This document shows positions 5,888-31,872 of a stretch of 32,000 nucleotides of DNA, in pieces. Source of the stretch: Candidatus Absconditicoccus praedator. Its GTDB lineage: Bacteria > Patescibacteriota > Gracilibacteria > Absconditabacterales > Absconditicoccaceae. The DNA is taken from the NCBI RefSeq assembly GCF_021057185.1, contig NZ_CP054059.1:900001-932000 (forward strand), read 5' to 3'. The position numbers were made by a program, and so were the translations under genes. The stretch's first letter is position 1. The number at the start of each line of letters is the position of its first letter. A model generated the notes under the pieces. The model saw only the letters and a list, made by a program, of their open reading frames with translations, made no database searches and was not told the origin of the DNA.

Positions 5888-6004
5888 ATTGACTAAAAAT
5901 ATCCAATCAAATTTCCAATTTACAGGCTTGATTTTTATGTTTTTTTTGATAAAAATAAGTATTTATAATTAAATCTACTGATGTTCAATCATTGAATACT
6001 TGGT

Positions 6005-8422
6005 ATGAATGCAAGAAACCTTTTGTACATAAAAAAATTCAATCCCAAAAAAGCAATCCGTCTTGCAGACAACAAGATAAAAACCAAGAATTTCTTTCAA
6101 GAAAGAGGAATACCTGTGCCAGAAACTTATGCAGTTATCAACAATCGTAATGAATTATACAATTTTGATTTTGCATCTCTTCCAAAGAAAAATTTTGTAG
6201 TAAAACCCAACAAATGAAGTAAATGAAGGTGAATTTTTGTAACAAAGCTTTTGGAAGATTTGCCAGAATGATATTCTGTTCAGCAAAATACAAAATGTTT
6301 TTTTGAAAAATACTTGGGGATCAAAAAATCTAGTGATTACAATTATTATTATAAAACAGGAGGTGAAGTTGTAAATGATGATGTGTATAGAAGATATCTT
6401 GTAGACATATTGGATGGTAAGCATTCTATGACACTTTGAGGAGACAAAATTCTTATAGAAGAAAAACTATCTCCTGGAGATAATTTCAAAAGGTTTTGTC
6501 AGTATTGACTAGCTGATATAAGAGTGATAGTATTCAACCTTATACCAGTTGCTGCAATGGTTAGAGTGCCAACGATAGAATCTTGATGAAAAGCTAATCT
6601 TGCACAGTGATGAATATGATTTTGAGTAGAAGTAGGTTCTGGGAAAATCAAATCTATGTACTACAAATGACAAATTTTCAAGAAAAAATTTCCTTGAGCT
6701 TTTGAAGATTTTCAAAACAAAAAATTGCCATTTTGGAATGATATATTATTATATAGTTCAAAAATTCAGTATTTTGTAAATCTTGGTTATCTTGCTCTTG
6801 ATTGGGTAGCAGTCAAGGACCAACCAAAACTTTTGGAAGTAAATGCTAAAGCTGGTTTGGAAGTACAAACAGCCAGTGTCTTGTGACTTAGAAAAAGGCT
6901 TGAAAAAATTTCTGATGTTAGTGTAAATAGCCCAGAAAAATGAGTAGAAATATCTAAAAGTCTTTTTAACTCTTCAAGATGAAATCTTGTGGCAATGTGA
7001 AAAGTTTTGTATTTGAGTCAAAAAGCTAATATTATCTTGGAGTCAGAAGAATGAGACCAACAAATACCTGTAGTGGTAAGAGTAGATATTAAAAAAGAGA
7101 AAAATTATATATCATCCAATCTTTATGAAACTGTCCAAGAACATAATCTTTGAGATACGGTTTTGGATATATATGAAAGCGAGATTAGGTTAAAAAACCC
7201 AGTTTTTCAGTGTTCGGATAAACTCAAAAAAAATGAGATAGTTTTGTGACATCCTTCTGTAAGTGAATTTTATATCAAACCAATTCACAATGTTATTGAT
7301 GAAATAAATATTATTAGCGACAAAAACATACTAGATGAAGAGAAAGAATATTTGTATACTATAGATCAACAACTCAAAAAAATTCAATCAAAATTGAATA
7401 TTACAAAACTGCTAAAACCAATAAATTATTTGGATGAGCTTGACAATTTTATTACTTGGAATTGAAATTATAATCCAAAATTTGTATACGATTGGCCAAG
7501 TACTGATAGATTGCAAGAAATAGAAGATTGGTTAAAAAAACTAAAGGAAAATTATTTCAATGAAAACTTTTGATTGAAAAGTAATTTTGCTTGATTGTTC
7601 GAAGAAAAAATAAACGAGCTTGAAATTGTTTTGAATCTTATAAATTCTTATAAAAGAGAAAAGTATTCTGATATACTCAAATATAATGAAATGCTATACT
7701 GAAAAATGGAGGATGAAATACTTCAACTTTCCAAACAAAAAATATTTATGGATGAGCCATCAGACGATGAAGTTTTATGAGAGTATCTAACTTTCTCTCA
7801 AACAAAAAAAATAATAAAAAAATATCTAGATGAAAGATGAATTACTGGAGTAAGAATACAAGTTGATCCTTCTTCTTATGCTAGAATTTCAATTGTTAGA
7901 TGAAAAAAAATTACCATAAAACTTTCTGGGCATGCCAAATTTAGGCAAAAAGAGATATACTCAACACTTGCTCATGAGATTGATGTTCATCTTAGAAGAT
8001 ATCTTAACTGACTAAAAACTTGATGGAATATTCTTGCCAATTGAACTTGATTTTATATAAAAGATGAAGAATGACTTGCTGTATATAAAAGTATAGAAAA
8101 TTTACCTGAAGATTATTTTAAAGTTTGAATATACAAAAAGTATTATCTTCTGAATCAAGCTCAGAAACATTCATTTTCTAGACTTGTAGATATGATTAGA
8201 TGATTGGAAAATAGAACTTTGAATTGAGCATTCAAAACTGCATTGAGAGCAAAAAAATGAGTTCAAAATACTTGATTTGTTGACTGATGAGCTATTTTTA
8301 TGAAAGACAAGATATATCTTGATTGATATATGAAAATAAAAGATTGGATAGAAAACTGATGAGATGTAGAGCAGTTCATGAAATGAAAAATAAAAATAGA
8401 TGATATGAGTAAGATTTTTTAG
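6005..8422 (+). CDS. fusion protein: alpha-L-glutamate-ligase-like ATP-grasp domain + DUF1704 (QEGLA-motif / MATCAP-like HExxH carboxypeptidase) domain
   Basis: 805 aa under code 25, about 45 in-frame TGA. The N-terminal third (MNARNLLYIKKFNPKKAIRLADNKIKTKNFF..GIPVPETY .. ADIRVIVFNLIPVAAMVRVPTIESGGKANLAQGGIG .. LEVNAKAGL) matches my memory of the RimK-related alpha-L-glutamate ligase-like ATP-grasp family. The C-terminal part has HEIDVH (7973-7990) and EEGLA (8066-8080), typical of DUF1704. Stop TAG 8420-8422. Confidence 0.75.
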
Positions 8423-13440: not shown

Positions 13441-13449
13441 TAAATAAAA

Positions 13450-14763
13450 ATGTGACAGAAAAAAATACTATTATCAGCTTTGGTGCTTTTGTCTATAATA
13501 TTCTTTACTGGTTGTGATGAACAAGTAAGCAGTGTTGAACCCAAAGACTCAGATTCTAATGGTTCAGATGTATCAGACTCTAATGCTTCAGATTTAGATT
13601 TTTGAGAACCAGAAGATATTGATATTAGTGAAATAGACACAAGTGTTTTGGATACCAAAAATTTTGATTTTGATATATTTTATGAATTGATATGAGAACA
13701 AGTAGAAAAAGATGAAAATTTATTCATTTCTCCATATAGTATCCATGCTGCCTTTTTGTTGGCATATATGTGAGCAGATGGAGAGACTAAAGAACAAATG
13801 TCAGAAGTTCTGGAAACAAAAGGGGTGGATATTAATGATGTAAAGAAAGCATATTATGCTCAAAAAGAAAAATTACAGGATTATTCTACTGAATGAGAAT
13901 TATCAATAGCTAATGCATTGTTTTTGGATCAGGGTATACCTTTTAGAGAAAATTATGTAAAAGATGGGCAAAGATACTTTGATGCAAAAGTTGAGGATAT
14001 GCCAGATATAGTGGATCCAATAAATGAATGGATAGAAGAACAAACAAACTGAAAGATAGAGGATATGTTAGGTGAACCGGGTGAAAAAATTGATCCTTTA
14101 GTAGTAGCTTATTTGATAAATGCAATATATTTTAAAAATGATTGGGAGACCGAATTTGACTCTATTAGAGATATGGATTTTGAAACTCCAGATGGACAAA
14201 AAGAAGTGGATATGATGTATCTTGAAGATGATCACAGATACGTAAAAGAAGAAGAATATCAGATGGTGTCAAAATGATATGAAGATGAAAGTTTTGCATT
14301 TCATGCAATAATGCCAAAACAGGAAACTTTGCAGGAATTTTATGAAGATTTTGATAGGGAAAAGTTTGAAGAAATAAAAACACAAAGAAGGAAATGAGAA
14401 ATTGAATTGTATTTACCAAAATTCACATTTGGCAGTAGTTTGGGATTGGTAGAAGTTATGCAGGATTTATGAATAAAAGATGCATTTGACTCAAGTTTAG
14501 CAAATTTTGATAATATGGTTGATTTAGAAGAATTAGGACAAAATGTATATATAAGCGATGCTTTACACGATACATTCATAGAAGTTAACAAGGAATGAAC
14601 TGAAGCAGCAGCGGCTACAGTTATAGAAATAAGAGCTGAATCAGCTCAACCACCATCTCCAGTATTGAAGTTTGATGAACCTTTTATGTTTATCATAGAA
14701 GAGGAAGAAACCTGACAAATTCTATTTATGTGACAGATGATGGAGCCAGTGATAGAAGAATAA
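13450..14763 (+). CDS. serpin-family protease inhibitor, predicted lipoprotein
   Basis: 437 aa. Signal peptide with lipobox (LSIIFFTGC), an acidic Ser/Asp linker, then a serpin core (NLFISPYSIHAAFLLAY, INAIYFKNDWETEF, LPKFTF). Inhibitory-type hinge EGTEAAAATVIEIRAES, then KFDEPFMFII. Confidence 0.9.
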
Positions 14764-14806
14764 AAATTTGCTTGAATAATCATTTAAAAAGTATAAAATC
14801 ATTGAA

Positions 14807-14860
14807 ATAAAAAAAATATTTTATCGTGTAAATGATATTAGGAATGTTTAATTATTAAAA
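14807..14860 (+). promoter_or_regulatory. conserved upstream element, copy 2 (A2M-like gene)
   Basis: Begins exactly 62 nt before ATG 14869. Near-identical to 13388-13419, with TTGAAA abutting its 5' edge at the same relative position. Confidence 0.55.
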
Positions 14861-14868
14861 CTACAGTC

Positions 14869-17800
14869 ATGTGAACTAAAACAAAGATTAGCTTAATAAG
14901 CACAGCAATAACAGCAATTATAATCACAGCAGGATACCATCTTTTTACCTATGCCAATCTTCATCACATACAAACAGATGAAGAATTCTTGAAATCCCTG
15001 GACTGGATGTATGAAAACGAGCTTACCCAATACAATCAAGTAGAATCTTTTAGACCGGAATTTAATCTTAGAAGAGATGAAGCAGCACATTTCTTTGTAA
15101 ATTTTGTAGAGGAAGGGCTGGAGCAAACTCCAGAGCAAGAAGAGGAAATTCCTGATTTTGCTGATTTAGGTGAAGCACATCAGGACCTAATACCTTCTAT
15201 AGAAAAAGCAGCAGAATATTGACTGATAAGGTGAGATGGTGGCAGCAATAACTTTAGACCAGCAGATCCTATTTCCAGAGCAGAGTTTTTTGCTGTAGCA
15301 GTTAGAGCAGTAGATGGAGAGTATTCAGAAGATACAAACCCTTGGTGGGAGAATTATTTTGAAGCTGCTCAGGAGCTTGATTTAACCAAAGAGTCAGATG
15401 TTATGGCTCAAGACAGAAACATTTTAAGGTATGAAGCAGGACTTGTGCTTTTTAGATCAGTTCATGATGAATGAGAGTATGAATTCCAGCCAAAAGCCCA
15501 AACTATGGAAATTGCATTTGATGAAGAAATGGATCAAGAATCAGTACTTGCAAATATGAAAACTTATCCCAAGGTAGAATATGATGCAAGTTGGGAGGAT
15601 GACAAAACTTTGAAACTTGAAATTTTGGATGATTTTAGCACAGAAGAAACTTTATTGGTAAATATTACCCAAGATGCTAAAACTGCAGCCTGAGAAAACC
15701 TTCCGGAAACATTATCAAGAGAGTTCAAGATAGATGCTACTCCAGAAATTGATTTTGTGTCTCCTAAATGAGATATTCAAGACCCAAATCAGAATATAAC
15801 TGTGAGATTTAGTTCTCCAATGGTTCCTTTGACGGCTCTTGATGACCAGCCAGAATGTCCTATAAGTTTTGATCCCAAGATAGACTGAGAATGTACATGG
15901 ATAACTACTAGTACATTTCAGTTTAGACCAGAAAAAACACTACCATTTGGATGAGAGTATGAGGTGGTTATTCCTTCTTGATTCCAAAATCAAGCTTGAA
16001 ATCCAATAACTGAATCCAAAAATTTCCAGATAAGAACCCCTGATTTTGAAGTTGTAAATACAAATAATAGAATAAACAAAGATGAGCCACTGAAGTTGGT
16101 TTTCAACGATGATGTTGATATGCAAGATGTGATGGATAATTTTGAAATGAGAGGTTATGAAACACATCAGTTAGATTTTGAATTTTGACAAGAAGAAACA
16201 AGTATTGAATGAGAATACAAAACACAAGAAAATATAATAGAAATTTTCCCTGCAGAGTGAGACCGAGGATACGATACTAGTTTAGATTTTAGGATATCTG
16301 ATCAGCTAACTTCTAAAAGATGAAATGTTCCTTTACAAACTGATTATGAAAGTACACTTAGTACAGATGGTTTGGTATTAGAGTATGGCTCTTTTATTTA
16401 TCAGGATCCTGAGCAAGAAGACAAAAACTTAGTTTCAAATCTTCAGCAAGCTGATAATAATAGGATAGTTCTCCCAGAAGATCCAAATATTCTAATAGAA
16501 TTTAATGAAGAAATTGAGTTGGATTATGATCTTTTTGATATAGATTATGATTTTGAACTTTCTTATATCAAAGAACAAGAAAATGAAACTATCCAAGAAA
16601 ATCAAAAATGAGTAATTATTGATATACAGGGGCAGATATCAGACGAATTAAATATAGAAATACTTGCTTCCAATATTAGTTCAAGTGATGATATAACTCT
16701 GGATTTTGGAACCAAGGATTATAATCAAATACAAGACTATGAGATGATAAACTATAAAAAACATTGCTTAACTACATCTCATCATATACCCAGAACTTCC
16801 AGGAACGAAGAAGCTTTTGAGTTTGATGGTTATTGAGAGGTGGAAAGAATACAAATAGTAAGATCACGGATGGATGACAAAGACGAATATGACTGTTACT
16901 ATGAAGAATGAAAAAATAAATATATTCTTGAAACTAATCTTGATCCTGATACTCAATATAATCTTAACATAAGCAGTGATTTGTTGGACAAAGATAACTA
17001 TCCTTTGGATCAGGATTATGAATATCAGTTTACTACTCCAGAAGTCAAAAACGAAGACAAACATGTTGATATTATTGACCAGGAATGACTTGTAATGATT
17101 CCAAGTAGTATCAAACCTTTGACTTTGCCAATCAAATCAGTGAACATAGACACTGTAAATATTAGAGTTTGTGAATGAGAAGTAAATCCTTCCAGGCATA
17201 ATTACATAGACAACAAAGACTGTCAAACTGCCAGAGTAGATGTTGAAAACAAATGATTTCAGCCAAGTTTGAATACTGTTGATCTAGAACAAGTTTTTGA
17301 ACAAGAGTTTGATTCAAATATAGTAAAAGCCAAGGTCTACAAACTTGAAGAAGATATGACAGAATCCCAAAAAGAAAGTTACCAAGAGGATGAATTAACT
17401 CATTCTACCAGAGTTTATAATATAAGTGATGTTACTGCTACCTTGAAAGAGGGTAAAGAAGATATTTTATGGCTCAGAGATTACAACCAATGAGAAAATC
17501 TTGCCAACAATATAGATAATATTACAGCTTATGAAATAAATAGACATCATCGCTGAACACATCCTTCTGTTGTTGGTAGGCATGATATAGATTTTGAACC
17601 AAAACAAAACTGACTTTATGAGTTGGAAAGTATTCCATCAAATTCAGACCTTGTAATAACTTTGGAAAATCAGGATAAAGTACTTGTAACTAATTCCGGT
17701 AATGAACTGTCTGAATGAGATGCCAAAACTTATATTTTTACAGATAGACCTTTGTACAAACCAGGTGATGAAGTAAATATCAAATGAACTGTTAGAAATT

Positions 17801-20800
17801 TTTATTCTGAAGCTTATCAGATACAGGAAGATAGTATACCTTTGAGAGTTAGAGATAGTAGGTGAGAGACTATGATAAGTGAAACTCTTAAGCTGGATGA
17901 GTATTGAAGTTTTCAGGCAGGATTTGATCTTCCTGATGATGCAAATCTTGGTGAATACACTGTAAGAGCTGGTAATGATAATTTGAATTTCAGTGTAGAA
18001 GAGTTTGAAACTCCTGATTTTGAAGTAGAAGCCACTGCCAGAGAGGATGATTATCTTCTGTGAGAAACTGCTCAGGTAGATATTGCCGCAAATTATTATA
18101 TGTGACTTCCTGTAGCCGAGGGTGAGGTAAGCTATGAATTAACAAGTGAAGATTATTATTTTGATTGATGAGGGGTACAAGGTTACCAGTTTGGTGAAAG
18201 AAGAAGTTTTTGGTGGCAACCAGATTCTGGAAGCAGACGTGAAGATAGGTGAGAACTTATATTGGATAATAACTGACAAGCAGTTTTGGATCTTGATCTA
18301 GAAGAACAGGATCAAGAAGACAAGATCTATAATCTATCTTTAAATGTACAGGATCCAGAAAGCTGACAAAATATAGCTCAAAATCTTTCTTTCAAATGAC
18401 TTAGAACTGAAAAGTTTGTAGGTGTGAATTTTGATGATTTTAGTTATGATTATCTGGATACCGCCAATATAGATCTTATAGCAGTTGATATTGATTGAAA
18501 TAGACTATCTCAAAAACAAATAGATTTAGAAGTGAAAAAAGTAGAACATCAACACGATGAAGTTGGTCAACAAAGAGAAACCACCAAAGATACGGTTATG
18601 AGCCAAACTTTGACAACTACTCAAGATGGTACAGTAAATACTGATTTTACTTTTGATGAGCCTTGAGAGTATGAGTTTGTGATAAGCACTCCTGATGGAA
18701 GTTATAAAACCACAAAAACATTTTATGTAGGATGAGCAGATGTATTGTCTCCTGGTCAGGAAGACAATGAAATTAATGTAATTCCTGAACAGCAAACTTA
18801 TGATGTGTGAGACACAATGAGAGCAACAATACAATCTCCTCATACTTGAGTACAAGCTATGCTAACAGTAGAAAAAAACAACAAAATAATGGATTCTAGA
18901 ATAATTGATATTGATGAGTACAATCAGGAAGTACAATTAGAGATCAAAGAAGAGTATATTCCAAATTTTGATATATCAGCATTTATAATAAAAGATGTTA
19001 CAACCATACAAGATGACTTCCAAGACTTAGAAGAAGTAAGAAACGAAATGTCTCAGATAGAACAAGATTTACAAGAAAGATTGGACATCCCAAGAATACC
19101 TGGTCCTCCAATAGTTCCATATTATGATGTAATAATACCACCATTGCCACCAGAAGTTGATGATATGGACGAAGAAGAACAAAATCTTTATGAAGAGTGG
19201 GTGGAACTAAGAGCTCAAGAACAAGAACTTTTATCAAATCTTTTGCCAAGTTATTATGGATGATTAGAAACCATAAAAGTAAATACAGATTATGTGAAAC
19301 TTGATGGACAGGTAAGTTTGGACAAAGAAATGTATGAACCAGGAGATGGTCAAACAATTGATCTTGAAATTACAGACAATGAGTGAAATCCGGTTGATTG
19401 ACAGGCAACAATCAGAGTGATAGACCAGGCTTTGTTGGATATGATGGACAACAAACAGGATATACTTGAGTTTTTCTACTCAAAACAATCAAACAACATC
19501 TCAACATCAAGTAATCTCCAAAATATTATCCAAAGAATTCATTTCCCTGATCAGTTAGATGTTCAGGTGGAAGAAGACTTTGAAACCCAACAAGATGATG
19601 CTCAGTTTTATGGTGAAATTATGGAAGAATCTGCAGATATGCAAGCAGATACCAGATCTGCAACAGAAGATGCTGCTGCTCCTGGGGATGATGAAGCAGA
19701 AGTTAGAGAAGATTTTGAAGATTTGGCATATTATCAGTCAGTAGTAGATGTACAAAACTGACAAGCTCAAATACAAGTAGACCAACTTCCTGATAATCTA
19801 ACTACTTGGGTAGTAGATGGTTTTGTGCATACTCAAGATACCAAAGTAGGGGAGTTTGAAACTGACTTCCAGGTACAAAAACCTATTGGTATATTAGAAC
19901 AAATACCTAGATTCCTGATCTCTGGAGATGAGCTGATAATAGCAGCTCAAATTGCTAACAATACCAATACTGCTCAAAATGTGCAAACCAATCTTGAGAT
20001 TAGCAATGCAACAAATACCAATCCTACTCAGGAAGTAGAAGTTGGACCTTGAGAGACAGAGCCAGTAAGATTTCCTGTAGAAATTGATAGTTTGTGAACT
20101 CAGGATATCAAGAATTTTGAGTCAGAAATTACTATATCTGCAAATGCAGGAGAGTATCAGGATGCAGTAAGACATACAAGAAACATCCAGCAACCAAGTA
20201 CTGCAGAATATGTGTTTACCAATGGTTCTACAGAGGATATAAGTTATGAAGAACAAGTTAAGATCTCAGAGATAATGGAAGAAAACTGATATTTGGAAAT
20301 TACTATGTGAGCAACTATTCTTACCAACCTAATGCACAATCTGGATGATTATTTTAGTTATCCTGGTGAGAGTCTTAGAAGTAGATTGGGATTCCTGGAT
20401 ATAGCTGAAAGTATGAGAAGTTTGTATCAGGGTGTAAACAAACTAGATGAATTTGAAGAAATTACAGTTTATGATAGAGATAATAATGAATATACTACTA
20501 TCCAAGAAGTAGAATCCAAAATCAAAGATGAAATGGATATATATCAAGAAGATGATGGATGACTTAGAAACTTCCAGGATAGTTGTTGGCATACTCGCCA
20601 ATCTTGTAGTAGTTTTGCTTTGTCAAAATCATATCTAGAAATGGATTTGGATATTGATGGAGTAGACAATGAACAGCTACTGGATTATTACAAATCAGAA
20701 CTTGAAGAAAAAATTGAAAGAAGTAGTTCTAACAAGAGAAACATTTCTTATTTTATGCCTTTGGCTGTGCAGTGAGAGTATGATTTTGTAAATGAACACT

Positions 20801-21912
20801 TTGAACCAAGAGATGACCTAAGCAACAAAAGAAAAATACAATATATCAATCTTTATGAGTTGATGCCCGAAGATTGAGAAAGAGCTGATGAGTTTTATGA
20901 AGATCTGAAAAACTCTATATTGATAGAAGCAAGAGGTAGTTTGTTACCGGCAGATTTGGATTATTCAAATAACATTATCTCTACTGCCAAAATGCTACAG
21001 TTGATGCTTGATTATGGAGAAGAAGAAAGACTACAGGTAGAGAATATGGCAAGGTGGCTTTTGGCAAACAGGGACGAAGAATGAGCTTTTCATGCCAGAA
21101 ATATTGTGCCTATCATAGATGCTTTGGACAAATACGTTGATCAAACAGGTGAGCTTGATAATGTTGATTTTGATGCAGCAGCTTATTTTGAAGAAAATAA
21201 TATAATGGAAGCAAACTTTGATATGGACAACAGATTTGGATTAGCTCACGATAAGTTTGATTTCCAAGATTATGTGAATTTTGGGGAAACTCATAGTCTG
21301 TGATTTGAAAAAGATGGAGAGGGTAGGCTTTATTATGATGTAGGATTAAGATACCATATACCAAACGATCAGATTACTCCAAGAGATGAATGAATGATAG
21401 TAAGCAGGAATTATTATGATTATGATGAATACCAAGATGCTCATGAAAGACAGTGTTTTACTCCAATATGGAGATGAAGATGGTGATGATCAAATTGTAG
21501 AAATGTAAGGGTAGAAAATATTGATTCTGTCAGTGAAGCCAATCATGGTGATTTCGTAGTGTGAGAGGTAGAGTTGACTGTTCCTTATGAAAGAAATGAT
21601 GTGGTTTTGAGGGATTATATCCCTTCTGGTGCAGAGGTTTTGAATGTGGATTTTGATACAGTGTGAGATGATGTGGCTGAGGTAGTAGGGCAAACTAGTG
21701 ATAGGCGATGATGATTTGATCATATAGAGCAAAGGAATGATATGGTATATTTGTATGCTGAGCATCTTAGGTCTGGGACATATACTTATACTTATGTAAT
21801 GCAGGCTAGTTATGAAGGTAGCTTCAATGTTCGTCCTGCTAGGGCTGAGGTTTTGGACAGACCAGAGGTTTTTGGTAGGAGTAGTGGTAAGGTTTTTGAG
21901 ATTAGTAGGTAA
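14869..21912 (+). CDS. alpha-2-macroglobulin-family giant surface protein with N-terminal SLH-like repeats and no thioester motif
   Basis: 2347 aa, a single frame-1 ORF under code 25; all nine frame-1 plus-strand track ORFs between 14989 and 21303 are pieces of it. N-terminal signal anchor and SLH-like segments (FADLG..GLIRGDGGSNNFRPADPISRAEFFAVAVRAV). MG-domain signature YIFTDRPLYKPGDEVNIKGTVR. Bait-like acidic stretch followed by REDFEDLAYYQS..LPDNLTTWVVDGF. TED-like helical region, and C-terminal receptor-binding-like end (GTYTYTYVMQASYEGSFNVRPARAE). TAA 21910-21912. Confidence 0.8.
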
Positions 21913-22045: not shown

Positions 22046-24010
22046 ATGATCATAATTTTTAATAAAAACGATATATTGCTAGATTTGCTAATTGACTGAA
22101 ATCCAAGAGATATTACGGATGAATATCTAAAAAATATATTAGAAGAACTATATAAATACTGACCAATTGTTCCCCATATAGAAATAAAATGAGAAGAAGT
22201 GAGAATAGAATTAGATATACCATCTATTGAAGAATATGAAAACAAACTACAAGAAGCTACAGAATTTGCTACTCGCTGATCATATCACAAAGCAAGAGTC
22301 TTGATTGATGACTTGTTAGAAAAGTATCCAACTGTATCTGATTTTTATAGAATAAAATGACAAATTTTTTATGAAACTTGAAAACTAGATCAAGCAGAAA
22401 AAAATATAATTGAATGATTAAAGCTAGAACCTGATAACAAATGGTGTTTGGTAGTCTTAGGAAATATTTATCAAAATAAAGGAAAAATTGAATTTGCAAA
22501 AAACTTGTACCTAAAAGCAATCCAAAAAGATCCAAATGATATATATGCACTAACAAATTATTGAGCTGTGAATTTGCAAGAATGAGATTATGAAGAAGCA
22601 GAAGCTTCTCTTGATCAATCTTATAAAAATGATCCTGATTATAATATTACAAACTACAATTTGGCAGTACTTTATAATTATAAAGATCAGTTTTATAAAA
22701 GTTTTTATCATTGAATAAAGGCAATTGAACAATCTCAAAATGATGAGAATATGAAAAATTCTATTATGAAAGTAGTTTTTGATTCTGCAAAGAAATATTC
22801 ATATTATTATTCTGTACAAGAGCTTTATGATAAATACAAACAAGAATTAGAACAAAGATCACAGAAATCAATCCAAGTTAACGAAGACAAAAATTTGCAG
22901 GTATGAGCAATCATAAAAATTGCAGAATATCATTGAAACAATGAACATAAGATTTTTTATAATCCACAAAATCAATACTACAAACATTCTATAATGCATG
23001 AATTAACTCATCTCAAATTGATTGAAGATGCAAGAGACCAAAAAAATAATAAAATATTTGCACAAACCAAAGAAAATCAAGCAAAATTCATAAAAGATCT
23101 AATATGAGAAAGTATGGATTTTTCAAAATCAGCTTATACAAAAGATCAAATTGATTACTTTTCTCAAAATATAAATCTTCAGTTGTACAATCAACCAATT
23201 GATCTAATAATAGAAGAATATCTTTTTGAAAACTATGAAGATATAAGACCAATACAGTTTTTGAATATTGTGAATATGGTAAAACAGTGAGTGGAAATAT
23301 CTAATAATAAAGATATAGAAAAAAGTACTCCCAAGGTGGTATATGAAGCAAATGTAATAATGAATATTGTCCAAGCATATTTTTTGGAAGATTTGTTTAG
23401 TGTAAGTTTCATCAATGAATTCAAGAAAAATAAGCTTATCAGAAAAGCATGGAACATTTATCAGGATTATAAATCAAAAAAGGATAGCTTAGAACCATGA
23501 GATGAATACGAACTTATTAACTATCGAGCAGAAGAGTTGTGATTATCTTGATATTTTAGTTTGATTGATGAAGAAGAGTTTAGTAGTAATGATTTTGAAG
23601 TTACAGACAAGAAAGATGAAGAACCAATAGAGTATGAAAATGTTGATAATTTCAAAAGTGATTATTTTGATATCATCAAAGACTATAAAGATAAATGAAA
23701 AATTGATGAATCTGAGATAAATATGGCTATTGTGATGTATTGTGTATGAGCAATACAATATTTGGAAAATTTAGATTTTGAAAAAATCAAAGAAATTGCA
23801 TTTGAGATATGAATGAAGTGAGCTGGTGGAATATCTTATTGAGATGATACTCAGTATGAACTAAAATCAATTCCTTGAAAAAAGTTTACCTGATATCAGC
23901 TGTTGGCATATATGTATGTTTCTTGGAAAATCATAGAGCCAACTATGGATGTTGGATTGGATTATTCTCAAGAGTATGAGTTAGCAAAAAAGATATTATG
24001 AAAAGCTTAA
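22046..24010 (+). CDS. TPR-repeat protein with an HExxH motif
   Basis: 654 aa. The N-terminal third has TPR-like repeats (..GNIYQNKGKIEFAKNLYLKAIQKDPND..ALTNYGAVNLQEGDYEEAEASLDQSYKNDPD..). SIMHELTHL lies at 22997-23011. The C-terminal half is unrecognised. TAA 24008-24010. Confidence 0.6.
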
Positions 24011-24016
24011 AAAAAA

Positions 24017-24044
24017 TTGACAATATTTTTTCAAAGATTAAAAT
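24017..24044 (+). promoter_or_regulatory. sigma70-like promoter of the KAP / MazG / DUF2075 operon
   Basis: TTGACA (24017-24022), 16-nt spacer, TAAAAT (24039-24044), 30 nt before ATG 24075. Confidence 0.5.
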
Positions 24045-24074
24045 TAGCTTAATTTTACCTCAAATTGAAATGAA

Positions 24075-27000
24075 ATGGTAGATGAGTCAAAAAAACTATA
24101 CAAAATTAATGGTGAAGAAATACAATGAGTTGATACAAAGTTTGGAAATGCGTGAGAATTATCCTCAGAAAAAGCAAAGATTAGATGAGTTATTAAGTGG
24201 ATAATAGATAGAGCTTATGAAAAATGATTTTCAAAAGATTGGATTCAAGAGGCTCTTGATAATTATATAAATTATGGATCTTGAAAAAATAAAGAAAAAA
24301 ATGAAAATACATATAGAGAAATCAAGGTGTCTATATATAACAACTTGGAAAATAATAAAAATAATTTAAAAAAGTTTTTTAGAGGTGAGAATAATACAAA
24401 AAAATTATGAATTCGAAGTGTAATAATAGATTGAGAAGAACTGTTAAATTCTTCTATACTAGATAAATTAAATATAGTTATTTTTGAGCTATCAAATAGT
24501 AGTAGAAAAAATGCTAAGACACTATATAATACAAGGAAAAACGAGAATAATGAGGTTTTAAATTTCTTTGCATGGGATGATAAATTTTGAAAAAATACTA
24601 AAGAATGAGATTTAGTATTTTTTGTTAATAAATCTGCAAAAGAAGAAAATGATGAGTTTTCTATTCTGGTAACAAGAATATATGATAGATGATATGAACT
24701 AAAAAATAAAAATAATGACCAGAATCAAAAATTTTACTATTTAGAAAAAGATGGAAATCAAAAAAAATTATATTATATATGAAATGAAGAAGATGCTCCT
24801 GAATGAGTTGATAATAGTAATAATTTATCAAAATGGGAATGGTCAGAAAATAATCAAAAAACTTTTGTTGTTTTTGAAGTTTTATATGAAATCAGAAATA
24901 TTACTGATTGGAGCTGATATAGAAACTTAGGTGCTGCTCAGTTTACTTATATAAAAAGTCTATATGATGATAGACTTCAATTTATTATAGAGACATTAAG
25001 AAATAATTTATCTGAAAATTTAAAAGATAAAAATTTTTTAAACGTTTATATTAACTCTTTAGATGTTCCTTTATGAGATGTTGATATTTATTATGAAGAT
25101 AGTAATGATAATAAGTCTATAAATATTTGGTGAAGATTCTTTGATAAGGTTAATAAAGATAAAACTTCAACAATTATTTTTGATGTTATAAATCGATATA
25201 ACATTTGATTTGAATCAGATATTAGTTATAGAAAACAATTATTATTATGATTGATTATATCATTCAATAAAGATTATGAGGATTTTATTAAACTATTACT
25301 AGCAGATATATACATTAGATATCTTAGAGGAAAGTCAGTATGACAGAAATATCCTTGAAATTTTAACTTTAATTGATGATGTATAAATATAAATTGATTT
25401 AAAGAATTATTAACTTTAAATATTAAAGAAAAATTATGAGAAAACGACTTATCATTACATGACAATGAAAATGAAAATTATTATACTATAGAAAAAAATG
25501 AAGAAAATAAAGAAATTGTTCAAATATTTGAATCCGATGATATAACAGAAGGTTTTAAAAGTTTTCTTGATTCAATATCAATAAAATTTGATTATATATA
25601 TCTTGCTAAATCTTACCAACAAATTAAGAATATTGTTGAAAAATATAAAACTTGAGAAAACAAAGAAGAGGATCAGAAATCATTTAGTGTATGAATTATC
25701 TGAAAATGGTGAGAATGAAAAACGAAACTTGTAAGTCTTTTGAAAGAGTATTATTTAGAAAATGAGAATTATAGTGTCTATGAGGTAGATGTATGGAAAT
25801 GATACTCCATAAACTGAGTAGAAACAGAAAAAAAGTGATTTATAAAATATATTTACAGAAAGTTAATAGAAAAAGAATTATGATATGAAGAATATAAATA
25901 TTGAAAATCCATAACTGATAAAATAAAAAACTCTTATATTTGAATATTGATAACATTTTTAACTAAAACTATATTCTTTTTATTTTTCTTCATAATTGAG
26001 AGTTTTTTAAAAACTTTTTATAATAAAACTTATTTTGGTAACTATTATACTTCTTCATCATTAAAACAATTAAATTTGAAATACTATTATGATAAGTTGT
26101 ACAATAATATCTTCTTGTATCAAAGATTTTCTTATGCGAAGTTTTTCTTTATATTTTATGTTTTTGGTTTGATATTTTTCATTTTCACTTATAATTTAGA
26201 ATGTCTTATATACTTTGAGTGTCTAGAAAAAGAATCTTTAGAACAGGCTGAATATATTCCTGAGTATATAAAAGAAAATGAGTATATAATTACTTTTTTA
26301 TTATTAATTCCTTTTTTTATTTTGTTTTTGTATAAGTATTGATTTAAGACTAATATTTATGACAAGCAAATACAGGATTCTAATTTGGCAGATAAATTTG
26401 GTAATGAATTATTTAATATTATTTGAGATAACAATAAAAAAATAATAATTCTTGAAAATATTGATAGACTAAATCCAGATCAAATAATTGATGTGATAGA
26501 TCTCACAAAAACAGTTTTGGACTTCCCAGATACTGTATATATAATTCCAATAGATCCAAATTTAGTTAAATGTTGACTAGAAAATAAGTATAAGGACTTC
26601 AACGGACAATCAAAAGAAGCATTTAATCCAGATTTATATTTGGATAAAATAATACAATTCCCCTACTATTTAGTTAACCCTTATCTTTTAAATATAAAAA
26701 AAATAACGAAAAAAGAAATTGAAAAATTTAATTTAAAGTTATATTGATTTTTGTCAACTATATCACAAGATAATGATGATTTTAAAAGATTTGAGAGTTA
26801 TTTTGATCATCTTGACTTTAAAAGAAGAGTACTTTGTAATTATAATCCTAGAAAAGAACAAATATTTAATCAAATAAAAAAAGTGTATTCAGAAATATAT
26901 AATAATGCTATTGATTATTATAATGTTAAAAATAATAATAATGAATTCTATCAAAGATTGTTTTATAATGAATTCTATCAAAGATTGTTTTATAATGAAT

Positions 27001-27419
27001 TCTATCAAAGATTATTTTTGGTTTTCTTTGCTATAAGATTTGCTGACATTAGTCTATTTATGAAAATTGAAAAAAAACCTTATATTTTACTAAAATTATT
27101 TTGATATATATCAAGTGATATTGAAAAAATTAATAATGACAATAATTTAGAAAAAAATCTATTTACTCTTGAAGTATCCAATATTTCAATTGAAATTTTG
27201 GAACAACATAATTTAGAATGTATAAACTCCAAAAATTATATAATAGAAAACAATTTATTAGAAAAAGAGGAAATCGTGTTGCTATTAGAAATTTTAGGTA
27301 ATTTTTATCCATTATCTGATAAAAACTATAATAACTATGACTATTTAAAAGAATTAACTGTTGATCATTTACAAAAGTACATGAGAAGGGCATATGTCCC
27401 TCTTAGAAAAGATAACTAA
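24075..27419 (+). CDS. KAP-family P-loop NTPase with a long unknown N-terminal region
   Basis: 1114 aa. I checked frame 0 codon by codon from 24075 to 25952 with no TAA/TAG; the track ORFs 25947, 26751 and 27198 are all in that frame. Walker A is SVGIIGKWGEGKT (25692-25724), with all four Gly encoded by TGA. Hydrophobic helices are inserted after it (25947-26340), then IIILENIDRLNPDQIIDVIDLTKTVLDFPDTVYIIPIDPNLV..YLDKIIQFPYYL, the KAP Walker B and downstream signature. Confidence 0.75.
26940..27020 (+). repeat. 27-bp in-frame tandem repeat x3 inside the KAP gene
   Basis: aatgaattctatcaaagattgttttat at 26940, 26967 and 26994 (third copy diverged at its end). Encodes NEFYQRLFY x3. Confidence 0.9.
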
Positions 27420-27447
27420 TTTATTTTAATAATAATTAATAGTTACA

Positions 27448-27783
27448 ATGGAAGAAATAATCAAACAACTTAGAGAATTTAGAGATCAAAGAGACTGGAA
27501 ACAATTTCATAACCCCAAAGATTTAGCTAATGCTATAAGTATTGAAACGGCTGAATTAATGGAACATTTCTTATGGAAAACTCAGGAAGAATCTTATGAG
27601 AAAGTAAAAAATAATCCCAAAATTGCAGAGGAGGTTGCTGATATTATGATATTTTTGATATATTTTGCTGAAACTTCATGAATTGATATTGAAAAAGCAG
27701 TCAAAGATAAAATAGAAAAAAATAATAAAAAATATTCTGTTGAAAAATCAAAATGAAAAAGTAATAAATATACAGAACTTTAA
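27448..27783 (+). CDS. MazG-like nucleoside triphosphate pyrophosphohydrolase
   Basis: 111 aa. REFRDQRDWKQFHNPKDLANAISIETAELMEHFLWK .. EEVADIMIFLIYFAE is the all-alpha MazG/dCTPase-type signature, with ExxE and E..D metal ligands. Starts 28 nt after the KAP stop. Confidence 0.8.
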
Positions 27784-27800
27784 TACTTATATTTTGTGCA

Positions 27801-29660
27801 ATGATAGTTTATAGTGAAACAAAACAAACATTTCTTGATGATGTTTCAAAAAGAAATATAGAAGACATTATAGAAACTTGTGTAGAAAATAAACTCAAAA
27901 GAAAAACATCAAAAAATGAAAAGCTATCATGGAAAAACTCATTGAGAGAGATGTTTTTCATAATGAGCGATAATGAAATACCTGATGATATATGAGTAAG
28001 TATAGAATACAATATTCCTTGATCATGAAAGAGAATAGATTTTATAATAACATGACTTGATGATTCCAACAAAGAAAATGTTATAATAATTGAATTGAAA
28101 CAATGGGAAAAAGTTCAACTTACTGATAAAGATTGAATAGTAACTACTCGATTTTCTCATGGAGAAAGTGAAGAAAATCATCCATCATATCAAGCTTGGT
28201 CTTATGCTACTTTGCTATATTCTTTTAACGAAACTGTTGAAGAAAATGATATTCAACTTAATCCTTGTGCTTATTTGCATAATTACAAGGATAATAGCTG
28301 AGATATTGTGCATGATTTCTATTCAGAATATATTACCAAATCACCTGTATTTTTGCAAGATGATAAGGAAAAACTTCAAAATTTCATAAAAAAATATATC
28401 AAGCACTGAGACAAAAATAAAACAATGTATGAAATTGATCAATGAAAAATTAGACCATCCAAATCATTAGCAGATAGTTTAGTATCTATGATTAAGTGAA
28501 ATCAAGAGTTTGTAATGATAGATGATCAAAAGCTTTTGTATGAACAAGCTTTAAAACTTGCAAGAAACTCCTCACAATCAAACAAAAAAGTTTTAATAGT
28601 TAGAGGTTGACCTTGAACTTGAAAATCTGTTGTTGCAATAAATTTATTGGTAACCCTTAATCAAGAAAGACTGGTAACTCAATATGTAAGTAAAAACTCA
28701 GCACCAAGAGCAGTTTATGCAGCAAAACTAACTTGAGAGTTGAAGAAAACACACATTGATAATTTATTTGTTTGATCCTGATCTTTTACTAATTCACAAG
28801 AATCAGAGTTTGACTGTCTTATAGTAGATGAAGCACATAGGCTTAATGAAAAATCTTGAATGTTTTGAAACTTATGAGAGAATCAAATAAAGGAAATTAT
28901 ATATGCTTCTAATTTTTCAATATTTTTTATTGATGAAGATCAAAAAGTAACCTTTAATGATATAGGAGAAGTTGATGAAATCAAAAAACGAGCAACAAAC
29001 CAAGGAGCAGAAATTTATGAGATGGAACTTTCTTCTCAATTTCGTTGTAGTGGGTCAGATTGATACTTAGCATGGCTTGATAATACTTTACAAATAAAAG
29101 AAACAGCAAATCCAACTTTGGAATGAATAAACTATGATTTCAAGGTTTTTGATTCTCCTGCTGATCTTAGAGATGCCATTTTTGAAAAAAATAAAATAAA
29201 TAATAGAGCAAGACTTCTTGCTGGATACTGTCGAAATTGGGTTAGTAAAAAAGACTCATCAGCTTATGATATTGTATTTGAAGAATACGATTTTCAGATG
29301 AAATGGAATCTCAGCAAAGATGGAATGTTGCGAATAATGAAACCAGAATCTGTAAATGAAGTTGGTTGTATCCATACTTGTCAATGATTGGAAGTAGATT
29401 ATGTATGAGTTATTATATGACCAGATTTAATAGTAAGGAATTGAGAAGTCTTGGTAGATCCATCACAAAGAGCAACTACTGATGCATCATTAAAATGATA
29501 CAAAAAGGCTTTAAAAGAAAATCCAGAGGAAACTAAGGATTTTATAAAGTCTCTGATAAAAAATACTTATCGTACTTTGATGACAAGAGGTATGAAAGGT
29601 TGTTATATTTATTGTACTGATGAGGAAACAAGAGAGTATTTTAAGAAATTAATTTGATAA
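27801..29660 (+). CDS. DUF2075-type protein: N-terminal PD-(D/E)xK-like nuclease module + SF1-like P-loop ATPase/helicase
   Basis: 619 aa. Candidate nuclease motif RIDFIITG..(11 aa)..IIELKQW (28038-28100). Walker A RGGPGTGKS (28605-28628, three of the four Gly are TGA). Walker B LIVDEAHRL. C-terminal CIHTCQGLEVDYVGVIIGPDL and NTYRTLMTRGMKGCYIY resemble DUF2075. Starts 17 nt after the MazG stop. Confidence 0.75.
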
Positions 29661-29666
29661 ATTTCC

Positions 29667-29695
29667 TTGAAATCAAAAAAATTATATGCTATAAT
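29667..29695 (+). promoter_or_regulatory. near-consensus sigma70 promoter with extended -10
   Basis: TTGAAA (29667-29672), 17-nt spacer ending in TGC, TATAAT (29690-29695). Confidence 0.55.
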
Positions 29696-29773: not shown

Positions 29774-30382
29774 ATGGCAGAAATCCCAAATAGACTACAA
29801 ACCAAAAAAGAGGATGCAGAAACTCTGATAAACCTTCTGCAAGATCAAAAAGATAAACTGGGAGAGGATCATTTAATGTTTAGGAACCAGCCGGATATTA
29901 TCAGCCAATTCCAGTCTATGAAAGACGAAATTTTGGAATGAGCTGAGGAGTTGGATGTCAGAGACGAACAAATTGATGATGACAGAGAGGGGCTTTGGAA
30001 TAATTTGACTGATTTTGTTGCTAGACTCAAACAATACTATCAATTTACCAAAGAAGACGGAGATCTGCCAGATTGGATGTACTACAAACCACAAACAAAT
30101 CAAACCGGACTAGAATTTTTGGAAGAACTTTTTGATAAAATTGATGAAGAATTATCCGAAGATTTCAAAACTTGATTTGATCAAGCTTCACCAATTACTA
30201 TTTCACAAGCAAAAGATGATTTTGAAGAATGGAAACAATGACTTAGATGAGAAGATTGGGAAGTATATATGGAAAAAAGAAGAAATATGTCTAGATTGAT
30301 CAATTATATGAAAAAGTCGTTGATGATGACAGGAATGACCGGCTTTGAAGTAAGAGTTAATCTGCACGAGGACGAAGACTAA
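29774..30382 (+). CDS. hypothetical acidic protein
   Basis: 202 aa. ATG 29774, TAA 30380-30382, five in-frame TGA. Visibly more G+C than the adjacent KAP gene. No family recognised. Confidence 0.6.
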
Positions 30383-30437: not shown

Positions 30438-30474
30438 GATTCCCCAAAAAATTAATAAGTAATTGATAATGTCT

Positions 30475-30583
30475 ACCCCTCCAAAAGATTGTAACAAAGT
30501 TGAAGAGGGATACCCCTCCAAAAGATTGTAACAAAGTTGAAGAGGGTCACCCCTCCAAAAGATTGTAACAAAGTTGAAGAGGG
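30475..30583. repeat. tandem 37-bp-period hairpin repeat array, left part (3 identical units)
   Basis: acccctccaaaagattgtaacaaagttgaagaggg at 30475, 30512 and 30549. The 35-bp cores are identical and separated by 2 nt (at, tc). Each core carries the complementary ends ccctc / gaggg. Confidence 0.9.
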
Positions 30584-30586
30584 TAG

Positions 30587-31872
30587 CCCTAGTCTTGTCC
30601 GAAACATTGATTTTATTATAAAAAAAGCTATAAGTATAGCATTTAAAATAATAAAATATATTTAAATATGGAAGGAATTAATGTAAAACAGATATTAGAA
30701 ATAATACCTGATGAATTTATAGAAAAATTAGAAAAAAACTGTAATATAAATCATCAAGTTAAAAAAATGAGTTGAAAGGTAATGTTTAAACTGTTATTAA
30801 TGTGAATATTAGATTGAGATAATTTAACACAAAGAACATTAGCATCAATATATAACAGTCCTGAATTTACTCAATATGCAGATAAATGAGAACAACAAAC
30901 AAGACATACAACTATAAGTGATAGACTTATAAACATGGATTATAAATTCTTTGAGAAATTGTTTGAAGAAATAAGTAAAAAGTTTGAAAAAGTATTAAAA
31001 ATATGAGCAACAAAAATGAAGGTGGTGCTAAAGAGATTTGATTCTACATTAGTTTGAATATCAGAAAAACTACTTAAGTTTTGAATAAAAGCATGAAGTC
31101 CAGATGAAAGACATATAAAATTTACAGTCTGATTAAAGTGATTGTTGCCAAATAAAGTTTCAGTTTATGAAGAGCAAAAAGCAAGTAGTGAAGATGTAGC
31201 ATTATGAGAAACTATTTTACAAGAGACAACATCTAAAAATCAAATATTATTATTTGATAGATGAGTTCAAAAAAGAGAAACTTATTCAAAGCTAATAGAT
31301 AAAAATACAAATTTTGTAAGTAGATTAAGACAAAATACTAAGTATCAAGTTATAAGACAAAATAAAGAAGTAGAATGAATAAAAGTATGAAATTTAGTGT
31401 TAGAATGTGATGAAATAGTAAAATTATATTGAAAATGATGAGATATATTAGAAAAAGAATTAAGATTAATAAAAGCAATAAATCAAAAAAATGAAGTATT
31501 TTTATTTATAACAAATATGTATAATTTCACAGCAGAAGAAATAACAGAATTTTATGCAAGGAGATGGGATATAGAAGTATTTTTTAGATTTATAAAACAA
31601 GAATTTTGATTTAGTCATTTTGTATCAAGATCAAAGAATTGAATAATGAATATGCTATATATGACACTAATAACATCAATACTTGTAATAGTATATAAAT
31701 CAAAAAACAGTATAAAATCCTACAAAGAAGCTAAAAGAAGATTTATTGCTGAATTAGATGAATTAATTTTAATTGAGCTAGCAATAGCAATCTGAGGAGA
31801 TGTTGATCTTCTTAAAAAGAAATATTTAAATTATTATAAATACTCTTAATAAGGTTTCGGACAAGACTGGGG
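30587..31872 (+). mobile_element. IS4/IS5-superfamily insertion sequence (about 1.29 kb)
   Basis: Inverted ends ccctagtcttgtccgaaac (30587-30605) and gtttcggacaagactgggg (31854-31872) agree at 18/19 positions. One DDE_Tnp_1-type ORF. Sits between repeat units 3 and 4. Exact ends and target duplication are ambiguous because the target is itself palindromic. Confidence 0.8.
30668..31849 (+). CDS. IS4-family DDE transposase
   Basis: 393 aa under code 25. KRFDST, ILLFDRG and the Y-x2-R-x3-E-x6-K signature (YARRWDIEVFFRFIK). Many TGA Gly codons. Confidence 0.85.

Follow-up and report, generated by a model that had tools for sequence, protein, structure and literature searches.

A MazG-like enzyme and a DUF2075 nuclease-helicase form the conserved core of a candidate defence locus in Candidatus Absconditicoccus praedator

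The locus and its genes

We analysed a 32,000-nt stretch of the genome of Candidatus Absconditicoccus praedator (SR1), hereafter the window, to whose numbering all coordinates refer unless they follow an L-number, which denotes one of the loci compared with it. The element under study is a gene cluster at 22046–29660, entirely on the + strand. It encodes a zincin-like protein with tetratricopeptide repeats (TPR) and an HExxH motif (22046–24010, 654 aa), a KAP P-loop NTPase (g1; 24075–27419, 1114 aa, PF07693), a MazG-like all-α enzyme of the DCTPP1/RS21-C6 type, predicted to be a nucleoside triphosphate (NTP) pyrophosphohydrolase (g2; 27448–27783, 111 aa, PF12643), and a nuclease-helicase (g3; 27801–29660, 619 aa, PF09848). 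The MazG-like gene and the DUF2075 nuclease-helicase gene are a conserved, tightly coupled core pair, which is apparently undescribed. It is g2 and g3 that make up the unit, and the trio with KAP is not a general system. The best reading of the window locus is a four-gene composite, in which this core is accompanied by a TPR-HExxH accessory and by a very rare KAP accessory.

An earlier note on this DNA had described g1, g2 and g3 as three co-directional genes, spaced 28 and 17 nt apart, with no hairpin between them. The coordinates bear this out exactly, and our scan finds no terminator-like hairpin on the + strand separating the genes. However, the locus starts about 2 kb earlier than the note had it, as the upstream TPR-HExxH gene had been omitted. 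The two promoters that the note placed at either end do exist as sequence matches on the + strand, each at 11 of 12 positions: a σ70-like TTGACA-16-TAAAAT at 24017–24044, within the 64-nt spacer between the TPR and KAP genes, and TTGAAA-17-TATAAT with TG at 29667–29695, 5′ of the next gene. Their weight is small because this AT-rich DNA contains no excess of such sites (76 in the window, compared with 66.3 ± 7.5 expected from shuffled sequence), and we dropped them as evidence for this reason; the second match is likely to be the downstream edge of the locus. The AT-richness attributed to the locus is likewise real, yet it is chiefly a property of the KAP gene and not of the locus as a whole: the G+C content of KAP, the lowest among the window genes measured, is 21–22%, compared with 25.9% for the MazG-like gene, 28.8% for the DUF2075 gene and 28.6% for the whole window.

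The window is read with genetic code 25, in which TGA encodes glycine. Taking TGA as a sense codon gives 28 long open reading frames (ORFs; 11,462 aa) in the window, compared with three under table 11, which breaks up every gene and was therefore abandoned for ORF calling in favour of table 25. TGA codons coincide with Walker A glycines, and the NCBI proteins of Ca. Absconditicoccus praedator are 100% identical to the table-25 translations. A series of database proteins from recoded genomes (P0125–P0134 and P0152) carry tryptophan at the TGA positions, in the style of a code-4 translation; with these translations, and with genes fragmented by other callers, code-25 lineages are under-sampled in protein-level searches.

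The MazG-like gene and the nuclease-helicase gene are linked across phyla

In species-representative genomes g3 has at least 525 confirmed relatives, and the best 80 among them make up our reference set. A MazG-like gene adjoins the g3 homolog in 77 of these 80 loci, and two of the three exceptions are contig ends, the third being L074. The coupling is tight, with a median of 2 nt between the stop of the MazG-like gene and the start of the g3 homolog, and with 59 of 66 gaps no longer than 30 nt. The same pair is present in seven further independent contexts outside the 80, and two IMG/VR contigs keep it with a DUF2075 subfamily that is just 29–32% identical. Outside the 80, adjacency is recorded for L001–L010, L092, L095, L099, L101, L105 and L106. 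The loci, at least 525 in number, are spread over the candidate phyla radiation (CPR), Bacteroidota, Proteobacteria, Cyanobacteria and Archaea. Homologs of g3 number thousands, with a full-length identity of 57–68% across phyla, and their lineages comprise CPR, Bacteroidota, Proteobacteria, Elusimicrobiota, Cyanobacteria/Melainabacteria, Methanobacterium and Methanosphaera. The distribution of the pair is patchy and covers a small fraction of species. In L074 (8308–9980), an internal locus, HNH and HNH-HIT genes occupy the place of the MazG-like gene. HIT proteins are nucleotide hydrolases or transferases, HNH-HIT genes lie near the pair in five of the 80 loci, and the one in L074 may be an analogous substitute for the partner that acts on nucleotides.

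The assignment of g2 to the MazG type made in the earlier note is well founded (PF12643, 66.3 bits with a cut-off of 27). The closest solved structures are an archaeal pyrophosphatase (PDB entry 4QGP; E = 5e-23) and DCTPP1/RS21-C6 (E = 6e-18), which g2 resembles both in full-length alignment and in the metal-binding tetrad. This ExxE...ExxD tetrad (E33, E36, E62 and D65; 27544–27642) is 100% conserved in 70 homologs. We infer that g2 is a DCTPP1-type deoxynucleoside triphosphate (dNTP) pyrophosphohydrolase, whose activity and substrates are predicted from the sequence. The two enzymes of known structure are stand-alone house-cleaning enzymes, whereas g2 is coupled to a nuclease-helicase.

The DUF2075 ATPase recognized in g3 by the earlier note covers the whole of the PF09848 profile (349.7 bits, positions 1–354 of 354). 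This family, formerly DUF2075, is now named SLFN-g3_helicase, and the corresponding SF1B helicase region lies at 28584–29621. The Walker A motif GGPGTGKS (residues 269–276) is conserved at each position in at least 90% of the sequences, and the DEAH Walker B motif (Asp343–His346) is invariant in the homolog alignment, as are Asp80, Glu98 and Lys100 of the N-terminal domain. These three residues and the predicted core topology agree with the PD-(D/E)xK-like module that had been proposed, a PD-(D/E)xK/NERD-like core at about 27912–28280. In the structure model (pLDDT of 71.6 overall and about 90 for residues 1–100) the N-terminal domain is predicted to adopt an α-β-β-β-α-β core with the motifs on β2 and β3: Asp80 is in strand 79–86, Glu98 and Lys100 are in strand 92–100, and the flanking helices are 38–55 and 130–148. 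Foldseek matches the fold of g3 to RecD2, Dda, Pif1, Upf1, Dna2 and human SLFN14, in a whole-protein search dominated by the helicase. A profile of the N-terminal domain found no match in the PDB; its sub-threshold matches are to NERD in two of eight members (E = 6e-4) and to Endonuc_Holl (E = 0.19).

A C-terminal LexA/UmuD-like S24 domain is present on 23 of the 80 g3 homologs, while g3 of the window is without it. The S24-fused homologs (L014, L021, L025, L026 and others) carry a GDSMN/GESMN motif and fall into two sequence classes, and the fusion suggests control of the nuclease-helicase by self-cleavage, as read from the sequences. We considered whether the fusion could be umuD fused beside umuC and rejected this, as a Y-family polymerase is near only two of the 23 S24-fused loci. 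A further arrangement of the family is found on the Hymenobacter canadensis plasmid NZ_CP114769.1 (L103), where two DUF2075 paralogs (58% and 32% identity to g3) lie in tandem, without a MazG-like gene and beside genes for a restriction endonuclease, a methyltransferase and a DUF4747 protein.

A recurrent TPR-HExxH partner

In the protein encoded upstream of g1, the TPR repeats (array at about 22268–22735) are the sole Pfam detection. The H318-E-L-x-H322 motif (22997–23011) is invariant in 15 homologs, and the AlphaFold2 model (pLDDT of 84) places it on helix 312–331, after a small β-sheet (strands 275–305). The C-terminal domain found no match in Pfam, in the PDB or with Foldseek, and the protein has no match in PADLOC 2.0. 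Motif and model together point to a metallopeptidase-like protein, a putative zincin.

Full-length homologs are 27–38% identical to this protein (32% and E = 1e-115 for the Adhaeribacter copy, which adjoins a MazG-like gene). A TPR homolog adjoins a MazG-like gene and/or a DUF2075 gene in all ten contexts outside the window, which are spread over Bacteroidota, a cyanobacterial mobile element and CPR. The order TPR – MazG – DUF2075 is found in Adhaeribacter (L006), Rufibacter (L023), Mucilaginibacter (L065), Bacteroidales (L068), Bacteroidetes (L079), a code-25-like contig (L095, divergent) and the 22-kb ParA-bearing element of the ‘Microcystis phage’ Mwe-JY31 (L101). The TPR-HExxH gene is an accessory that recurs beside MazG and DUF2075. 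In the window, KAP stands between the TPR and MazG-like genes, at a junction that measures 0–30 nt elsewhere.

The three remaining contexts depart from this order. In Aquiflexum (L093; 6001–8569) the TPR-HExxH gene is followed by a longer MazG-like gene (190 aa) and by no nuclease, beside BREX (BrxL and PglZ) and McrBC genes on a mobilisable element. In a metagenome locus (L097; 6001–9752) TPR-HExxH and MazG are accompanied by a different nuclease, of the NmeDI_C type. As the TPR-HExxH and MazG-like genes keep together with another nuclease or with none, MazG appears to be the hub that links the modules. In the third locus, also from a metagenome (L108; 2588–7433), the DUF2075 helicase lacks the N-terminal nuclease, and the start of its gene is overlapped by a divergent TPR-HExxH gene; upstream, in divergent orientation, is a separate gene for a NERD nuclease. 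That nuclease and helicase are split here supports the view that the g3 N-terminal domain is NERD-like.

A rare and lineage-restricted KAP NTPase

The KAP NTPase domain of g1 (residues 533–885; 25671–26729) is detected with 80.9 bits by PF07693 (cut-off 20). Its Walker A motif GKWGEGKT comprises residues 543–550 (25701–25724) and is followed by a hydrophobic insert (25932–26345) with three to four hydrophobic segments within residues 620–757, before the Walker B-like IIILENIDRL. The membrane helices that the earlier note had placed inside the NTPase domain correspond to segments 620–644, 685–714 and 735–757, predicted by Kyte–Doolittle hydropathy alone. The N-terminal region that it had found unrecognizable (24075 to about 25544) is indeed an orphan: about 500 aa have no Pfam match even at E ≤ 10 and no match in PADLOC 2.0. 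The neighbouring HNH, HNH-HIT and PDDEXK families were tried as candidates for this domain and rejected, with HHalign probabilities below 1%. Further along, a 27-nt in-frame repeat (26938–27018; three copies, 98% matches) encodes NEFYQRLFY three times; since the homolog in L099 has one copy (NETYQKLF), the repeat is a recent in-frame expansion.

A word-indexed search for homologs of g1 found essentially nothing. An exhaustive HMMER search of 1.84 billion representatives returned one real relative, P0152 (E = 2.6e-50); the other matches listed have their best stretch around Walker A or Walker B, in no case beginning before residue 506. Two members of the subfamily are thus known among 1.84 billion proteins, both embedded in a MazG–DUF2075 cassette. 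P0152 is encoded in L099, a metagenome contig of 28% G+C that uses code 25, in the order PIN_8, MazG-like gene (58% to g2), 437-aa ORF, KAP (570 aa) and DUF2075 gene (63% to g3), with the KAP ORF overlapping both of its neighbours. The 437-aa ORF is homologous to the N-terminal domain of g1 (pairwise phmmer E = 9e-12, with collinear segments) and the KAP proteins of the window and of L099 align end to end; g1 therefore corresponds to the two L099 genes fused into one.

None of the 80 reference loci contains KAP, as assessed by tblastn with the window KAP, and about ten further contexts also lack it, so that the trio put forward earlier does not hold as a general system. Comparison by blastp with 149 KAP proteins found none in the compared loci except in L099/L100 and the window copy, and scans of metagenome DNA yielded no third KAP, the automatic patterns finding none and the hand-built IILENIDRLxPDQ finding only the contig of L099. 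The notion that the three families never co-localize outside this genome is nearly true, the sole exception being L099, with its different order. The locus does not belong to a core syntenic backbone, since the flanking genes differ among related recoded CPR genomes. One apparent further case, L091 (P0002), was set aside as independent evidence because its DNA is 100% identical to the window and comes from the same organism.

In a neighbour-joining tree of g3 proteins, which is crude and without bootstrap, the four recoded-CPR proteins form a clade, in which the window pairs with the KAP-less L092 and L099 pairs with the KAP-less L001. These KAP-less sisters indicate that KAP is a facultative accessory that has been repeatedly gained and lost, or rearranged. 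Rare and lineage-restricted, KAP is an accessory rather than a third component that defines the system.

Comparison with known defence systems

The link between DUF2075 and the staphylococcal Nhi, given in the earlier note, is confirmed by the literature, in which the Nhi helicase overlaps DUF2075. Nhi of Staphylococcus epidermidis (SERP2475) is a single-gene nuclease-helicase that defends against phage (bioRxiv 10.1101/776245), and ‘Nhi-like’ of Bacillus cereus FSL H8-0482 is a verified anti-phage protein that combines a nuclease with PF09848 (Millman et al., 2022; bioRxiv 10.1101/2022.05.11.491447). g3 has the same architecture, with a nuclease of the PD-(D/E)xK type at the N terminus and a DUF2075/SF1B helicase after it, and aligns collinearly with Nhi-like over the nuclease motif and Walker A. 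In sequence, however, g3 falls outside these proteins and belongs to a separate, far more conserved subfamily. The PADLOC Nhi model gives partial matches of 31–44 bits (31 bits for g3), in the helicase core. The two papers name no MazG partner, whereas the g3 subfamily almost always has a MazG-like gene 5′, and the subfamily also differs from Nhi and Nhi-like in its variable S24, TPR-HExxH and KAP add-ons.

The best PADLOC match for g3 and for its homologs from three phyla is PDC-S41, a single-gene candidate system, over the N-terminal nuclease region and, in P0006, also C-terminally. Scores of 52–62 bits, from a profile of 657 positions, mark it as distantly related and as a different family. 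The AbiO model matches the g3 helicase core weakly, and g2 has no match in PADLOC 2.0. In the searchable literature we found no paper that names both DUF2075 and MazG, and no description of MazG-like proteins as components of defence islands.

g1 resembles PifA and QatA in having a KAP P-loop domain in which hydrophobic helices separate Walker A from Walker B. The resemblance to both is limited to some 90–120 residues of g1 around Walker B: the PADLOC PifA match reaches 55.8 bits, its best stretch covering 89 of the 720 positions of the profile, and the NCBIfam QatA match scores 42.5 bits against a cut-off of 600, so that neither extends over the full length. Moreover, no QatBCD partner genes are recognizable among the genes of the locus, and the N-terminal domain of g1, of about 500 aa, has no homolog except in L099.

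Nucleotide-depletion defences, such as those based on a dCTP deaminase or a dGTPase, place dNTP-removing enzymes in a defence context. The concept is similar here, but the enzyme families are different, g2 is paired with a DNA-degrading motor, and depletion is a prediction in our case.

Genomic neighbourhood and mobility

Neighbours were counted as genes within 6 kb in the 80 reference loci. PDDEXK_1, Fic and HTH-Panacea genes each occur in eight loci and RhuM-Fic in seven; HNH, HNH_2 and a directly downstream PLD-helicase-DUF3427 gene each reach the count of five already given for HNH-HIT, followed by Y-family polymerase (four), HD_4 (three) and a second, tandem DUF2075 paralog (three). At least one neighbour of conflict type (PDDEXK, HNH, HNH-HIT, PLD-helicase-DUF3427, Fic/RhuM or Panacea-antitoxin) is present in 42 of the 80, a raw count over these loci. 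Among single cases, a DpnI gene overlaps the stop of a g3 homolog, a restriction-modification system adjoins a member of the pair family on a Hymenobacter plasmid, and BREX and McrBC adjoin TPR–MazG in one locus (L093).

Members of the family are carried on plasmids in Hymenobacter, Marivirga, Halomonas, Methanosphaera and Halalkalicoccus. Carriage by phages was considered and rejected: IMG/VR holds no close relative, only divergent ones (29–32% identity), and the sole ‘phage’ record is plasmid-like. In this record (L101; PP438423.1) the TPR-HExxH, MazG and DUF2075 proteins are all annotated as hypothetical and a ParA-like gene is present; it looks like a plasmid-like element, or a phage with a defence cassette, rather than a typical phage.

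Other features of the window

An acidic-protein gene follows g3 (29774–30382). Its product has no Pfam or PADLOC match and was not found in any related locus. The mobile or repeat DNA that the earlier note had placed next to the locus is present in the form of an IS4-type DDE transposase gene (30668–31849) and a 37-nt tandem array (30474–30590). The array, which lies between the acidic-protein and transposase genes, has 3.2 copies with 95% matches, and its units form G+C-rich hairpins that a terminator scan picks up on the − strand. The window, taken from a genome of 1.1 Mb, contains two different insertion-sequence transposases, an rve-type integrase (2139–2993, − strand) and the IS4-type DDE_Tnp_1 (+ strand).

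At 13444–21912, a gene for a 437-aa serpin (PF00079, E = 8e-90) is followed directly by one for a 2356-aa protein that is labelled A2M in the earlier note only; serpin and putative A2M would be a protease-inhibitor pair in a predatory epibiont. Finally, 5969–8422 encodes an 813-aa fusion of an ATP-grasp domain (ATPgrasp_ST) and a MATCAP-like metallocarboxypeptidase, which is kept at 43% identity in L099 (257–2677), the other recoded genome that bears KAP.

Discussion

On balance, we consider it probable that the locus at 22046–29660 is a lineage-specific elaboration of a widespread, horizontally mobile two-gene cassette with an Nhi-like role in DNA-targeting defence. It is the architecture, the linkage and the context of the genes that suggest this role, and the defensive function put forward in the earlier note is plausible from the genomic context. 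The nuclease-helicase g3 would load onto foreign DNA or replication intermediates and then degrade them, while the pyrophosphatase g2 would take dNTPs, possibly the modified dNTPs of phage type, out of the pool. To this core, different lineages would attach different accessory modules, probably sensing or regulatory: a C-terminal S24 autopeptidase, an upstream TPR-HExxH protein and, in two recoded CPR genomes only, a membrane-inserted KAP. A more specific version, which we regard as doubtful, has MazG–DUF2075 as an unrecognized anti-phage system in which the enzyme destroys modified dNTPs (5-substituted dCTP/dUTP analogues), the nuclease-helicase degrades the replicating genome and the triggers are interchangeable. 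The adjacency to DpnI, NmeDI_C, PLD-helicase-DUF3427, McrBC and HNH modules would then reflect a shared specialization against hypermodified phages.

Several points weigh against a defence role. Such conservation between phyla, 57–68% identity, is more than is usual for a defence gene and also fits conserved repair; the S24 fusions, and the Y-family polymerases that occasionally lie nearby, point to the SOS response; and the closest relative locus, L092, lies among housekeeping genes. The pair has no dedicated PADLOC model, the PDC-S41, AbiO and Nhi matches being weak and partial, and g3 is just 21% identical to Nhi-like (E = 5e-4). The tally of conflict-type neighbours is the raw one given above, and the evidence for coupling to KAP comes from two genomes. 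The pair could instead be a DNA-repair and nucleotide-pool house-cleaning module under SOS-type control rather than an immune one, a serious rival in view of the high conservation, the similarity of g2 to DCTPP1/RS21-C6, itself a house-cleaning enzyme, and the S24 domains on more than a quarter of the homologs examined (with the polymerase near four of the 80 loci). The housekeeping context of L092 speaks for it as well, as does human SLFN11, which has the same helicase domain and acts on stressed replication (PMC6765204). We nevertheless think a repair module unlikely: the pair is patchily distributed, is carried on plasmids and mobile elements and changes its genomic position among relatives, restriction, toxin–antitoxin and Fic genes dominate its neighbours, and few of the S24-fused loci have the polymerase nearby. 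That the pair is a selfish cassette for addiction, mobile-element maintenance or counter-defence, with the nuclease-helicase as toxin and MazG as its modulator, seems very improbable to us. Its presence on plasmids and on a ParA-bearing element, the tightly coupled order of a small gene followed by a large one, and a high identity suggestive of rapid spread would agree with such a cassette, but the strictly conserved catalytic tetrad of MazG would be unexpected in a mere antitoxin, and most loci are chromosomal.

The place of KAP can also be understood in more than one way. If KAP, MazG and DUF2075 were an obligate three-part system, a membrane KAP sensor would trigger dNTP hydrolysis and DNA degradation. 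The co-directional genes of the window, with their short gaps and no terminator between them, would suit this, as would the fact that the only other member of the KAP subfamily is also in a MazG–DUF2075 operon with ORFs overlapping both neighbours, in a gene order whose difference speaks against simple inherited synteny. Such a system is nonetheless quite improbable, given that KAP is missing from every reference locus and from all other contexts examined, that in the g3 tree the sister of either KAP-bearing locus lacks KAP, that hundreds of species evidently have a complete pair without KAP and that the sample amounts to two genomes. KAP may alternatively be an independent single-gene defence or abortive-infection module, like PifA and stand-alone membrane KAPs, that was inserted into the cassette. 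Its low G+C content relative to the window, its weak PADLOC matches to PifA and QatA, the promoter-like site directly 5′, the splitting of a TPR–MazG junction that is otherwise short and the internal repeat expansion can all be read in this way. Both members of the subfamily are, however, in the same type of operon, at different positions and with overlapping ORFs in L099, and double chance nesting is unlikely for a cassette that well under 1% of genomes carry; we therefore see an independent module as possible but rather unlikely. Shared ancestry followed by rearrangement within one CPR clade might also have brought KAP into the two cassettes.

If the pair does act in defence, its two-enzyme logic, an attack on the nucleotide pool together with a DNA-degrading motor, goes beyond the PADLOC release searched and the literature that we found. 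Its breadth, from CPR bacteria to methanogens in species-representative genomes, makes it testable, as many homologs are in cultured bacteria with the standard code (Polynucleobacter, Pedobacter, Flavobacterium, Mucilaginibacter and Rufibacter). The family shows modular evolution, with one conserved effector core and at least three unrelated accessory modules. Since its helicase domain is that of the human Schlafen proteins, bacterial mechanisms may inform SLFN biology. For Ca. Absconditicoccus praedator itself, the locus would offer a rare view of the genome defence retained by an obligate predatory SR1 bacterium with a recoded genome of only 1.1 Mb.

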